From Felis catus (taxonomy: Eukaryota), in contig NC_058374.1 in assembly GCF_018350175.1 (NCBI RefSeq), positions 45,446,001 through 45,510,000 of the forward strand: DNA of 64,000 nucleotides, in the 5' to 3' direction. This document shows positions 7,904 to 61,440 of the stretch, piece after piece. The notes beneath the pieces were generated by a model that saw only the letters and a list, made by a program, of their open reading frames with translations, searched no databases and was not told the origin of the DNA. Every line of letters begins with the position of its first letter. Position 1 is the stretch's first letter. The translations under genes were made by a program, and so were the position numbers.

Positions 7904-8838
7904 TTACATCATGCAGACCGTTTTGCCATACCTTGGCATCCTGATAGATGCCCTGCCTCAGCTTGTTATTCCCAATAATTAAAATGAGTGAATGACCAGA
8001 AGGATAGAGAATTGGTATAGCTTCTCCAAACATCACAGCGAACTTGCGTTCTTTCATAAGGTGGCTAAAAGTCACCAAAAGGGAAACCTCATAACACACA
8101 AAAAGGAGGAAGAGAAATGAAGTCATAGTTTTCATGGCTCCCGCCTGGGCCTCTGTGCTGGGACCTCCACAGCCTGTAACACTGGGTTTCATTTGCTTGA
8201 CATGTCTCTGTAGGGACACAATTAAAAGAAAAAGTGAGATCAATGACACAGTCCATGGGACAATTGCCAACAGGTTAAAGAGGGTCAGCGGGTTGAAGAA
8301 TTGACTCTTACTCACATGGAACATTTCAGGGCAGTTGCTTTTATGTTCTGCAATTTTATGAAACTCCTAATCATAATGTGGTGTCATTGCCAGTAGAAGG
8401 CTGACCAAGGAGGAGATGGCCAAACAGCCCAGCAGAATCCAGTGAATCACTCTGTCAATTCTCCCTCTTCAGCCAGAGAAAAAAGTGGGTGGGAGAAGTT
8501 GGCTATCTTGAGGAAATAGAAAACATTGAGTCAGGTGGCAAACCATATACTTAAGTAGTTGGCAACTGTCCAGACGATATGCATGATGGCTTTTTAGTTT
8601 AGCATTTTCATAAAAATCTGGGTAGAGATATCATTATGATGATATTTACTATCATTATACAGAGCAAACACATTCTGGAGATGGCTAGACTGGGGAGGAT
8701 ATAGTCAGTTGAGGAGATCTTTTTCTTCTTAATCCAGTCAATCCAGTTTACCAGTCCAGTGTATACATTCCTCAGAATTCCTATTATGAATTCTCCAGTT
8801 ATTATGATCATGAAGATGTTGTCTTCTGTACAGAGCAT
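7904..8838 (-). pseudogene. TAS2R8P: TAS2R8 pseudogene
   Basis: ATG at 8838 (MLCTEDNIFMIIITGEF...VNWIDWIKKKKIS) and C-terminal fragment MFHVSKSQFFNPLTLFNLLAIVP match TAS2R8. Lesions: frameshifts near 8620, 8593, 8479-8484, 8463-8465 and 7951-7953; in-frame TGA 8531-8533 and TAG 8367-8369. Ancestral stop TAA at 7904-7906 after ...KTVCMM. Confidence 0.9.
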
Positions 8839-10702
8839 ATTGGTAGAGAGAACACCCTGGTCTCCATTATCACTGCAGATGGGCTAATTTACAGATTCTC
8901 AGTTGAAGGGTGGTAATAAGTTCTTCAAGTCATGAAATAATGCTTTCTTTTCATTCACTATTTGGATTTTGATATCATTCCAGGAGTACCAAGCTCTCTT
9001 TGGAAATAGGATGGCTTCTACATTTGTGAGGACTAAACCAACTGGTTGTTCCAAACATTTTGATGAGCTTTGAGGCTGGGCAAATTATAATCATCACCCT
9101 TTTAGTGAGTGGTAAGTGAAATGTTTGGTTGAAAATGCTCTCATACCCATTAAAAGAGATTCGATTTCATGAATTTGCAACAGGCTTCTTGCTATTAAGT
9201 TTTGAGTACTCCGTTCGACCTGTTGAACTGAGTTTCAAACAGGGAGCCACAGACAGCAGAAAAAAACCATGTATTCCATAAAAATCACAATGTGTAAAAT
9301 GAAAGTTCATTTTCATCACCATAAACTGTAGGCCAATCACGAGTCAGGTTTCCTGGCTCTTGGAAATGAATTTTAGTTTTGGAAATGATCAGTACAATTG
9401 GATTAGAGAAAATTAACATTCAGTCAGAGGATAATAATTTTCATTTTCATATAAATGGTTAATCAGAGAAGGATATGGTACCAATCTAATTATACATGCT
9501 ATAGTGTTATTAGTCAGGCAGGCACGTGGCAATATTTACAAATATTTTGCCTCTATGCAGTTTTTTAATAGAAGTGAAAGATGCTAGATTAAAATTTGCT
9601 AGTTTCATTTCATTGAATGTAGGAAATGCTCCCCGTCTGAAATGATCATCCCAAAATGTTGTCTCTTGGATAATACACATTTTCATATAAAATTAAGGAA
9701 GCACACTTTATTCTCTTATAATCAACTCTTTTTATAAGACTTACAACCTCACATTCTACATTGTAGTCATTTCTCCTGATGGGGCAATCACATTTTTAAA
9801 AATGTTAACCGAATAATGTTTTCAGGGAAGAAGACTAATTCTGCTATCAAATTGATTTATTCTTTCTTGGGAGACCCATTCCACAATAAATTTAAATCGA
9901 AGTAATACAAATCACAGAACGAGGGTTCTTCTTCTTGTATTTAAGTACTTAAATAATGTAAATAACATATGTAGTATATTTCCTATTTCTATTGCATATT
10001 GTGTTACAGGAAAGCATGAAATTAATAATTTAAGGAAACCTAGTTATCTGTAAAATGTTACCAGAAACAGAATAGAAAAGATAATGATGTTAAGAGAGAG
10101 AAAAAAAAAAAAACCAAACAAACAAGTCAAAGATTCTTGAGTCTAGAAGGGTAGAGAAAACATTCCAAAGAATCTTTGAGAATTGACCCTAAAGCTGGGT
10201 GGTTTTGATATACATATCCCTTAACTGTAGACCCCACACTCCTTTTCCTGGTCAAACATTTTCTTGAGATCACATCTCTTTTCCTACATTATATTTCACC
10301 CTGAAGAGGGTCTCACCCAGTGTTTTATCTCCTTCCTTAATGGGACAAATCATTCTAGAAATGGAGGGGGTAGAGCAGAAAAAATAAGAACGGACCTCCT
10401 CCGGCTCAGAAGAAGTACAGTTTCTTATAGGATCGATTTTATAGGAAGGGCTGATATGTTTTAAAACCTCTTCCCTGCAGCCTGTTTGCCTGAAATTCTT
10501 CTGCTGCTTTTTGAGCTCAAGGTTTTTACCAGAATATGACAGAAAGGAGAACCTCTTTGCCTTGGGCTCATCTTTCCTGCAGACACGAGGAAATGCACGT
10601 GGCTCCATGATAACATTTGACTTAAACAAGATGGAAATGTGAAGGAACCCAAAGGGAAATTTAGAATAATGATAGATATGCATGACTCTTAACAGCATAC
10701 AA

Positions 10703-57490: not shown

Positions 57491-57984
57491 TAAAGTGAGG
57501 TTTTTTTAGACTGCACATAGTTGGATCTTGTTTTTTCTCTAGTCAATCTGACAATCTCTGTTTTCTTTCTTGGTTTGTTTAGACCATTTATATTAAATGT
57601 GTCAGTATATTAGTCTTTAAATATATCAATTTATTATTTTTTAGATTCATTCCCTCTGGGTTTGATTCCACTGGTCTTCATTTCCCGTCCTTTAAAAATA
57701 TTAATTGCTTTTAATCTGCCATTTTATCTATTAGCTTTTTGGTTTTAGAAATTGAGCACCCAGGCTGGTTTATGCAAACCAGCCCCACAGTCTTTTCCGT
57801 CCTCTATCTAGTTTGCATCTCCTGTGAGGGTTCCAGTCAGCGCTTCACCCAAGAGCCCATGGCGACTTACTACTGCCCCCTAGAGGACTGAGGAAGTCAC
57901 TAGCAGGAGCCAGGCCTGCTCTGCCAGGAAGTACTTTGTGTTAATGACCCCTCAGAGCATGAATATCTTGAGGTGAATCTGGAG

Positions 57985-58110
57985 TCGCTTAGTCTCTCAG
58001 CCTCTCCTTTCCTCACCAGAAAAAAAAAAATGGGGATAATAATGCCTCATACACAGGATTGTGGTGAGAACCAAACAAGATAGTAGCACATGTGAAACCT
58101 TATGCTTTGG
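57985..58110 (+). mobile_element. MIR
   Basis: aaaatggggataataatgcctcatacacaggattgtggtgagaaccaaa core. Confidence 0.65.
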
Positions 58111-59390
58111 GATATTCATAGTAGTAATAGGAGATAGAAGTAGTAATAGTTGTTGCTTTTTTACTATTACCTACAATTCTCCTTCAGGATCCTGCTGGGG
58201 TTAGGATACTGTTTGCAGGAAGATGCTCCCTTTGACTCAGAATAGCCAGCAGGCTCAAAGGGCTTTTGAGGAACTGAAGCCGTGGTTAGGGGCCTCCTGG
58301 ACTAACGCTTCATGACTCACCACGATACTTGGTCTGAAATTCAGTCCTGTGCTCGGACACAAAACAGCACGTTGAGGGTTCAGTAAAGCATTGTTTGGCT
58401 CTTGCCCAGATGACAAACCTGCAACCTTGTGCCAGGAGAGGAGTCACTTCAACCATCTAGTGAAACTAGAATTTCTCCCCTGCCCCCTCTGAAAGGTGGA
58501 TAAATGGTGCTTCTGGTAAGAAGTCCATGCAACACAATTTCACAAAGGACCTTTTCAATGTTTCCTTGCTTCTTCACTCCCAGTTTCTTCTTCTGGCATT
58601 CTCTCTAGGGGCATCTCATTGCATGGTCCAGGATTTTATTTTATTTTTTTTCTTACTTCTTTCTTACTTCTTTTCTTACTTCCCCGCCCCCCCCCCCCCC
58701 GCCGCCATTCTCTTCCTCCCAGTGCTCCTTCTGTTGGCTCTCCACTTATCAGATGCTAGGTTTGAGGTTCTTTACTGCATATGAATGAATGATAAAGCAC
58801 AGTAGCTAAAAGAGAGAGCAAATGATTTTGGCCTCATTGGCAGCATGCCCATAACCTGGTCACCTAGGCTAGGCAGCCACAATGACTGGGTATCTTTCAC
58901 TGTAACTCAAAAAGACCCTGGTTATATGCTCATCAGGTCTACATGGTTATAATGTTCTTTGGCGAGCAAGCCCCCAAATGTCTGGATTGTGCATTCTATG
59001 GGAGAGACTGAAAAGTCAGGTTCTAGACTTCATCCATTAAGTGAAAAAATGGAAGGAGTAGCCCATTTTAGAGTTGATTCCATTCTGGTTTGTGCACCTT
59101 GGGAATAGCTATTTTCCTAGCTCCTTGCCCCCTTTCGGCTTTTCTTTTTAGTTTTCGTGGACCTGGAAGGCTTATAGAGGGAATGTCCTTGGAATTTTTA
59201 TTCTGTTCCAGTCTGACCAGTTCACATATAAAGGCACAGTATTGAATTCTCCCTGACACCCTCAAAGAAAGGTGGTGTAGGGGGCTCTGAGCATACTCCT
59301 GGTTGTGAGATCTTCCAGACTTTCTGCACTTGGCAGTTTAGAGACTTGTGGTGAGAGCATATTCGATTCTATGTGTGCTTTTTGTTTCAG

Positions 59391-59462
59391 ATATACCTCT
59401 CTAAAAAAGATTAGCTTGGAATGGGAACAATATAAAGATGGTGAAGATATTATTGCAAGAAA
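59391..59462 (+). other. Candidate 72-bp exon upstream of the mucin-like repeat
   Basis: Acceptor tgctttttgtttcag at 59390, donor aaa|gtaatt at 59463; open in phase 2 (YTSLKKISLEWEQYKDGEDIIARK) and joins in frame to the first AG downstream (59552-59553). Confidence 0.4.
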
Positions 59463-59563
59463 GTAATTTGACCTGTTCTTTTTTTTTTTTTTTTTTTTTT
59501 GCTTATCTACACATAATCAACAACTAAATTACTGTCACTCAACAAATATCAAGATGTGAGAAC

Positions 59564-60063
59564 TTGAGCACAACCCCAGAATCGACCACTGCCCTAGGGC
59601 CCACCACCACCACAAGGCCAACTACTACCCGAGGACCAACTACAGACCCAGGGCTGTCCACCAGCCCAGAGTTCACCAACACTTCACAGACAACCAATGG
59701 CCATGAGTCAACCTTCCTAGAGTTGACAAATGCCCTATAGTTGACCACTGCCTTAGAACTGACCCCTGCCCTTCCTAGTTGGTCATGGATCTAGAGCTGA
59801 CCAACCCCCCTTAAGATGACCACATGTCAGAGTCCACCACTGTCCTGCAGTCAACCACTGCCCCCGTATGCACCACTTCTCGAGAGTCAACCACGGCCCT
59901 AAAGTCGACCACTTCTCTAGACTCAACCACTGCTCCAGAGTTGACCACTACCCTGGCACCAGCCACGGTTCTTCAGTTGACCAATGCTCCTGAGTCAACC
60001 ACCACCCATGAATTGACCACTTCCCCTGAGTCCACCACTTGTCTAGAGTCCACCACCATCCCA
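59564..60063 (+). repeat. Degenerate 18-bp tandem repeat (~28 units, consensus GAG TYR ACC ACT GCC CTA) with mucin-like PTS coding potential
   Basis: In register it reads ESTTAL/ELTTAP-type hexapeptides. Two in-register TAG codons (59738-59740, 59776-59778) and small indels in 59770-59830 shift the frame. Confidence 0.9.
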
Positions 60064-60099
60064 GAGTATTCGAGGTGGTTGCAAATGGCAAGCTTTTGT

Positions 60100-61440
60100 T
60101 TCTTTATTTTTTATGCCAAAGTATCGGCACATCTTGCAGTTGATTTCTAGGTTTATACCACTGTGGTCAGAAAAGACGTTTGACGTGATTTCAGTCTTCT
60201 TAATTTTATCGAGACTTGTTTGTGGCCCCGCATTTGATCTATCCTGGAAAATATTCCATGTACATTTGAGAAGAATGTGTATTCTGTTTCCTTTGGATGG
60301 AATGTTTTGTATATGTCTGTAAGTCCATCTGTTCTTTTATGGTAAGTCTGTTGACAGCAAGTTCTGTTAGCTCTCTTTCATCTGAGGAACTGATTGAGTT
60401 CCTCTTCCTCTTCAGTACTGAAGGATGTTTTCACTGGATATAGCATCCTGGATTGATAGTTGTTTTAATAATTTAAAAGTATTCTGCTACTCCCCTGGTC
60501 TTCATGGTTTCTTTCTTTTTAAAAAAAATTTTTTTTTCATGTTTATTTATTTTTGAAGGAAAGAGAAACAGAGTGTGAGTGGGGGAGGGGCAGAGAGAGT
60601 GAGAGACACAGAATCCGAAGCAGGCTCCAGGCTCTGAGCCATCAGCAGAGCGCGACGCAGGGCCCGAGCTCACAAACAGCGAGATCATGACCTGAGCCGA
60701 AGTTGGACGTTCAACCGACTGAGCCACCCAGGCGCCCCTGGTCTTCATGGTTTCTAATGATACTTCCGCTGATATTCAGATTGTTTTCCCCTATAAGTAA
60801 CATTATTTCTATGTCATTGCTTTCAAGATTTTTTCTTCGTCTTTAATTATCAGAAATTTGACAATGGTGTTTCTTGGTGTAGATTTCCTTGTGCATATCC
60901 TGGTTGGGCTTTGCTCAGCTTTTCAAGCCTATAAGTTTATGGTTTGGGGCCAAATTTGACAACTTTTCAGACATTATTTCTTTGAGTACATTTTCAGGCC
61001 CATCCTCTTTCTTCTCTCTTCCTGGGACTCAGATGACATAGACCTTAGATCATTTGTTACGGTCTCTCACGTCCTTGAGGCTCTACCCATGTTTTTTAAT
61101 TATTTTATCTTGTGTTCTTCAGATTATATGATTTCCATTGATTCAAACTCAAGAGCACCGACTCTTTTCTCTGTCACTTCCTTTCTGCTATTGATTAAAC
61201 TCCAGATTTTTTAATTTTTAAAGTTCAGATTTATATTTTTAGTTCCAAAGTTCATATTTCATTCTTTTATATAGGTTCAATTTCTCTGCTGAGAAGGTAT
61301 TTTTCTTTCCATGTATTTTGAAAGCGTCTACTTTTATCTCAGAGAGGATAGCTATAGCAACTGCTCCAAAGTCTTTGATCATGCCTATATCTAAAGTTTT
61401 TGAGAGTCAGCATTCATTGATGGTTTTACCCCTTGAGAAT
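60100..61440 (-). mobile_element. Old L1 fragments directly after the mucin-like repeat
   Basis: gtggtcagaaaagacgtttgacgtgatttcagtc, atattccatgtacatttgagaagaatgtgtattctg. Confidence 0.7.
60513..60737 (-). mobile_element. CAN-SINE
   Basis: TSD ctggtcttcatggtttct. Confidence 0.93.

Follow-up and report, generated by a model that had tools for sequence, protein, structure and literature searches.

A probable dead partial duplicate of an intact PTS-repeat gene in a bitter-receptor cluster of the cat

The repeat array and its intact parent gene

The window, the whole 64,000-nucleotide stretch of Felis catus DNA analysed here, is a TAS2R cluster with five receptor frames. Two frameshifted or interrupted TAS2R pseudogenes lie at window positions 7950-8850 and at G000:C16:~45,515,200-45,516,600, more TAS2R fragments occur near 45.545 and 45.562 Mb, and ERV-like ORFs, which we take to be gag/pol/env-like, are found inside the cluster at G000:C16:~45.57-45.60 Mb (L029-L032). 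Three of the ERV ORF starts recur about 4 kb apart, which suggests an internal tandem duplication or an assembly artefact.

Towards the end of the window lies an array of 28 units of an 18-bp repeat, called by TRF with periods of 18, 36 and 72 bp and delimited by unit listing (Table 1); the locus is referred to below as copy A. The initial annotation, made from the sequence alone, had described about 28 such units read in register as a PTS repeat and broken by two unit-initial TAG codons and small indels, and our data bear this description out. The units translate as T/S/P-rich hexapeptides, with P, T and S making up 55% over 137 codons. Two units, at 59738 and 59776, begin with an in-register TAG, three units shift the frame (59756, +2, 20 bp; 59794, +1, 19 bp; 59813, -1, 17 bp), and one further unit is 15 bp long.

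When the cat's own genome was searched with this region, a match of 72% emerged at a distance of 130 kb, on the opposite strand, and one of 80% to the repeat on a different contig. The former is an intact gene, for which no name was found and which we call gene B (G000:C16:~45,633,500-45,639,200, minus strand). It is inverted relative to copy A and lies beyond the last TAS2R at a distance of 22 kb; an ETS-type SAM_PNT exon that we take to belong to ETV6 follows at 45.975 Mb. Mapping a young retrocopy back onto the genome shows that the gene has six exons with GT-AG borders and that its introns within the coding part are all of phase 1: an upstream exon after a TATA-like box codes MLRKALIVTAWFTLAVAYPVILP, the repeat frame is open and ends at a splice donor, and small exons follow downstream of the repeat. 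The product, known as a 170-aa ORF via the young retrocopy, has a signal-peptide-like hydrophobic start and acidic T/S repeats. The gene B repeat contains 47% P+T+S, so that both loci carry the exonic tandem repeats rich in P, T and S that are expected of a mucin. The signal peptide and open frame equally expected of one are missing from copy A, in which exon 1 is deleted and the array carries five lesions.

The repeat unit occurs at only three other sites in the genome, namely gene B and two retrocopies. The young retrocopy (L024:1196-2125; G000:C16:133.62 Mb) was found by a search with the gene B exons and is 100% identical over three spliced pieces and 98-100% identical to gene B outside the repeat. 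Flanked by a 12-bp target duplication and ending in a poly(A) tail, it retains an intact 170-aa frame with one repeat unit fewer than gene B; its 5' end lies upstream of the TATA-like box, and it could be polymorphic or expressed. The old, broken retrocopy (L003:1380-1720; G000:C11:104.43 Mb) occupies, in antisense orientation, an intron of a gene for a cyclic-nucleotide phosphodiesterase (Pfam PDEase_I), presumably PDE5A. In both, exon 1 is joined straight to the repeat exon. The old retrocopy keeps a small exon that is present in the relatives P0024 and P0026 and absent from the young retrocopy, and it used an acceptor further upstream, which also fits the seal, pangolin and orca proteins. 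The older retrocopy and the seal and pangolin proteins point to an acceptor five repeat units upstream of the one that the gene B mRNA uses, as seen in the young retrocopy; at this more upstream site the present genome has GG instead of AG.

Words of the processed sequence were present in sequencing runs, with 20 of the 24 runs listed holding at least half of them. Fourteen RNA runs from 8 studies (1 RNA on record, 13 guessed to be so) hold 71-84%; these runs, whose samples are coded, do not separate gene B mRNA from its young retrocopy. For copy A (59340-60085), no contig was found in either of the two guessed-RNA runs that hold the processed sequence of the parent, although such absence can be false. 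A run of a second organism covered only 59340-59465 of copy A, with no differences.

Structure of copy A

A weight matrix built from gene B units only scores the copy A array at 237, against at most 11 elsewhere on both strands of the window, which places the array far beyond chance, and the gene B units detect it in the same register. The initial annotation had read a decayed plus-strand coding exon in this very frame, and the open frame of gene B confirms that choice. As to codon-position bias, by which the frame was also to be judged, the consensus shares are only weakly biased in copy A (0.78/0.69/0.65), although they fall in the same order as those of open gene B (0.78/0.77/0.63). The array represents a decayed coding exon, and the plus-strand gene to which it belonged encoded a likely secreted PTS-repeat protein with a laurasiatherian range. 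If a phase-1 acceptor like that of gene B (CCCAG/A) were used, the exon would start at 59580.

Table 1. Features of copy A, in window coordinates
Feature	Position	Strand	Basis
Duplicated upstream flank of gene B	57759..58650	+	78% identical at 57759-58256, with weaker similarity as far as the T-tract at ~58650
CTCF-type motif (predicted)	57874..57886	-	candidate pattern match, in the most strongly conserved block of the two copies
Deletion junction in T/C-rich tracts	58640..58702	+	alignment with gene B and signal-exon profile search
Intron 1 remnant	58702..59560	+	15% substitutions, K2P 0.18 vs gene B
72-bp stretch first proposed as an exon; intron 1 sequence with chance AG/GT borders	59391..59462	+	phase, gene B, retrocopies
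28 x 18-bp PTS repeat, counterpart of gene B exon 2	59561..60063	+	TRF, unit listing, gene B comparison
End of homology to gene B; no donor, no exons 3-6	60064..60330	.	gene B comparison

Homology to gene B extends well beyond the repeat, with 78-79% identity over flank and intron and a K2P distance of 0.21 for the upstream flank. About 0.8 kb of gene B is missing from copy A at ~58650, comprising the TATA-like box, the 5' UTR, the signal-peptide exon 1 and the start of intron 1; in gene B this interval also holds a SINE. Both ends of the deletion are T/C-rich tracts, which suggests a microhomology deletion. The initial annotation had found no signal-peptide exon here, because it has been deleted: gene B is the only place within 331 kb that is matched by profiles built for the signal exon (13 sequences) and for the C-terminus (15 sequences). 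Nothing near copy A in these 331 kb matches the DNA of the gene B 3' exons either, and a genome-wide search found no third gene B-type 3' end near the window. L1-like sequence, recognised by eye, begins at ~60100. A search for L1 across the duplicate, following the idea of insertion into one old L1, returned only SINE matches.

One block of the flank (57807-57926) is far better kept than the rest, with 5 mismatches between the copies in 120 columns (permutation p 0.004). At its centre is what we take to be a CTCF-type motif pattern, which occurs twice in 331 kb, once per copy; the two predicted motifs are divergently oriented, with eight TAS2R loci between them. Local gene conversion may be another explanation for the block.

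Origin of copy A

We propose that copy A is a broken partial duplicate of intact gene B, an ordinary pseudogene fragment, and we put the probability of this reading at roughly 85%. Copy A was duplicated at the DNA level and not via RNA, because intron and flank are kept. The hypothetical sequence of events is as follows: (i) an inverted duplication, at a K2P of about 0.18-0.21, would have produced copy A; (ii) a deletion between T/C-rich tracts would have taken out the promoter and the signal exon; (iii) the 3' exons would either never have been copied or have been deleted; (iv) the array would afterwards have drifted and turned over as a neutral minisatellite, and no protein would be made. 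At a substitution rate near 2e-9 per site per year, the duplication dates very roughly to 40-50 million years ago. It is probably younger than the old retrocopy, whose K2P of 0.27 to the last exon of gene B over 233 sites suggests that it predates the duplication. With retained intron and flank, a parent nearby and disabling lesions at about the neutral rate, copy A resembles other unprocessed (duplicated) pseudogene fragments and differs from them only in the better-kept block with the CTCF-type motif. The initial annotation had considered a gene lost in this lineage or a polymorphic null allele. The former is contradicted by an intact paralogue only 130 kb away that has recently been retrocopied, and the latter by the absence of promoter, exon 1 and exons 3-6 from copy A.

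It is conceivable, though we think it unlikely, that copy A was once a complete working paralogue that turned more mucin-like, is still intact in some other carnivores and was lost later in the cat lineage. Such a history would suit the array, which is longer than that of gene B (28 units vs 16-21), richer in T+S (46% vs 40%) and poorer in D+E (9% vs 24%), with Asp at unit position 5 in 2 of 24 units vs 11 of 21; its last 13 units contain neither stops nor frameshifts, and part of intron 1 as well as the upstream block are kept better than average. However, the five lesions of the array compare with 4.05 stops and frameshifts expected had it been free since duplication, an estimate that derives from the non-coding alignment of copy A and gene B (20 indels and 181 substitutions in 1156 columns), assumes a Poisson process, ignores unit turnover and thus is a weak clock of little power. 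This count fits an early death of copy A, near the duplication. The 36- and 72-bp periods suggest that recent copying of units explains the clean 3' part, the repeats of the hyena and seal proteins match those of gene B one unit after another, and a profile that included the pieces of copy A found no protein closer to copy A than to gene B among its best 7990 candidates.

Far less probable is the scenario of the initial annotation, which envisaged a separate mucin gene of salivary or tongue glands, akin to the cluster's genes for proline-rich proteins and lost or polymorphic in this felid, with a 72-bp coding exon spliced to the repeat over a 91-bp intron. The AG/GT borders, the 91-bp GT-AG gap, which contains a single AG, and the translation across the join are all present as described, the frame is open into the repeat in phase 2, and AG and GT occur at about equivalent places in gene B. 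Exon status and splicing, in contrast, do not hold. The 72-bp stretch is open in phase 2 only, which is the wrong phase for this family, phase 1 reaching a stop at codon 5, and its 65-bp counterpart in gene B has stops in all three phases. Neither retrocopy contains it, nor, by eye, do the 21 aligned proteins, and we therefore rejected it as an exon. It also belongs to the most diverged stretches of the duplicate, with 24-25 mismatches per 100, gives no Pfam match and is one of 17 candidate exons that pass the same loose rule on the plus strand of the 64-kb window. The retrocopy structures largely refute this scenario, and the salivary or tongue-gland assignment finds no support. The 72-bp stretch was also considered, and rejected, as a relic of the extra N-terminal segment in the bat and rhino proteins. 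That segment scores best against the first repeat units of gene B, and its "DGEDII" likeness to the 72-bp stretch scored only 10-20.

Least credible of all is a transposon- or satellite-derived minisatellite with no coding past, which would match the L1-like and SINE surroundings and the TRF call of a degenerate tandem repeat and is refuted by the coding paralogue gene B, by the confinement of the unit's other genomic sites to one gene family and by its protein-coding use in annotated genes of several mammals.

Likely relationship of gene B to KAP and significance

With the ORF of the young retrocopy as a query, a word-indexed search returned 6 proteins and a full HMMER search 23 at E<=0.001, two of which (P0013, a trout protein, and P0027, 1265 aa) are likely compositional matches and were excluded from alignments and Pfam scans. 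A 21-sequence profile including the two open pieces of copy A, with which only the best 7990 candidates were scored, returned 12. The named relatives are uncharacterised or mislabelled proteins of Crocuta (hyena), Halichoerus (seal), Manis (pangolins), Hipposideros and Artibeus (bats), Camelus (camel), Orcinus (orca), Moschus (musk deer) and Diceros (rhino). The source record of P0003, a pangolin relative, says "Nitric Oxide Synthase, Brain", evidently a misannotation. These proteins share a hydrophobic segment at the N-terminus, a variable array of hexapeptides and, beyond the array, a conserved motif; the correspondence of hyena and seal to gene B in individual units was noted above. From its sequence, the gene B protein would be predicted to enter the secretory pathway via its hydrophobic segment and to carry O-glycans or phosphates on a disordered T/S/E/D array.

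The Pfam KAR profile (PF15222), which stands for the kidney androgen-regulated protein (KAP; mouse gene Kap), is matched by 4 of 39 relatives (4/24 in the main scan, 0/13 further relatives and 0/2 for the gene B ORF and the hyena protein). All four matches fall on the conserved part that follows the repeats, and their E values range from 1e-6 to 0.055. One match (P0024, 29.3 bits) exceeds the curated cut-off of 27 bits, and the three others have E values of 5e-5, 2e-4 and 0.055. The Pfam scan gave no KAR match to the gene B ORF, the hyena protein or the copy A pieces, a KAR search of the cat's own genome was silent, as was its control, and no named rodent Kap appeared among the protein matches of the word-indexed, HMMER and profile searches. 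The best ESM Atlas score was 0.79, and these matches are leads only. The initial annotation had pointed to the proline-rich genes PRR4, PRH and Prp. No Pro-rich Pfam family (PRR4/PRH/PRB/Prp) is matched by the 39 relatives or the copy A pieces, in which T, E and S dominate, and the family match is to KAR/KAP; gene B is thus likely not of the PRR4/PRP type.

We consider it likely that gene B is a repeat-expanded relative of KAP that spans Laurasiatheria. We take mouse Kap to lie between the Tas2r cluster and Etv6, and KAP presumably has a hydrophobic N-terminus, as gene B has. In the accessible part of its description, KAP is a small acidic protein rich in P, E, S and T with PEST regions (PMC3182248). 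The gene B family is alike in this: the mature part of gene B has 43% P+T+S and 24% D+E, although such an acidic PEST-rich body is not specific. In contrast to KAP, the family possesses a tandem array of six-residue T/S-rich units of variable length, gene B itself scores below KAR detection, and copy A is a dead fragment. As far as the accessible text of two papers goes, KAP has no significant homologues and a nearly unknown function (PMC5701062, PMC3182248). A literature search, with subscription journals mostly outside its coverage, found nothing on non-rodent KAP relatives or on the gene B/copy A locus.

The gene B family also recalls the lineage-specific mucins that arose by exonic repeat gain, as described in the available part of Pajic et al. 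2022 (PMC9417175), in its signal-peptide-like start and in a single-exon PTS repeat whose unit number varies between species. The array of gene B differs from them in being short and strongly acidic, with only putative glycosylation, and that study, in its accessible part, concentrates on the SCPP locus. The accessible part of its supplements contains no entry for KAP, ETV6 or TAS2R and neither of the LOC identifiers searched for; the 2 shown of 9 "kap" places are immunoglobulin kappa.

A wider scenario would derive mouse KAP, as one branch, from an ancient mammalian gene which in laurasiatherians became a small acidic mucin by gaining an 18-bp exonic repeat, with a carnivore duplicate that became more mucin-like and is still intact in some species, and a dead felid copy partly kept for a CTCF site in the bitter-receptor cluster; taken as a whole, we regard it as improbable.

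In summary, copy A itself does nothing new, and its value is that of a pointer to a poorly described, probably secreted, mucin-like relative of KAP. The two germline retrocopies of different ages imply that gene B has long been transcribed in germ cells or early embryos. The gene B family would provide a further example, away from the SCPP locus, of a mucin gained through exonic repeats. If cats, bats, pangolins, seals, whales and ungulates have an intact relative with a variable PTS array, KAP would become open to comparative study through the conserved signal segment and the conserved motif after the repeats.
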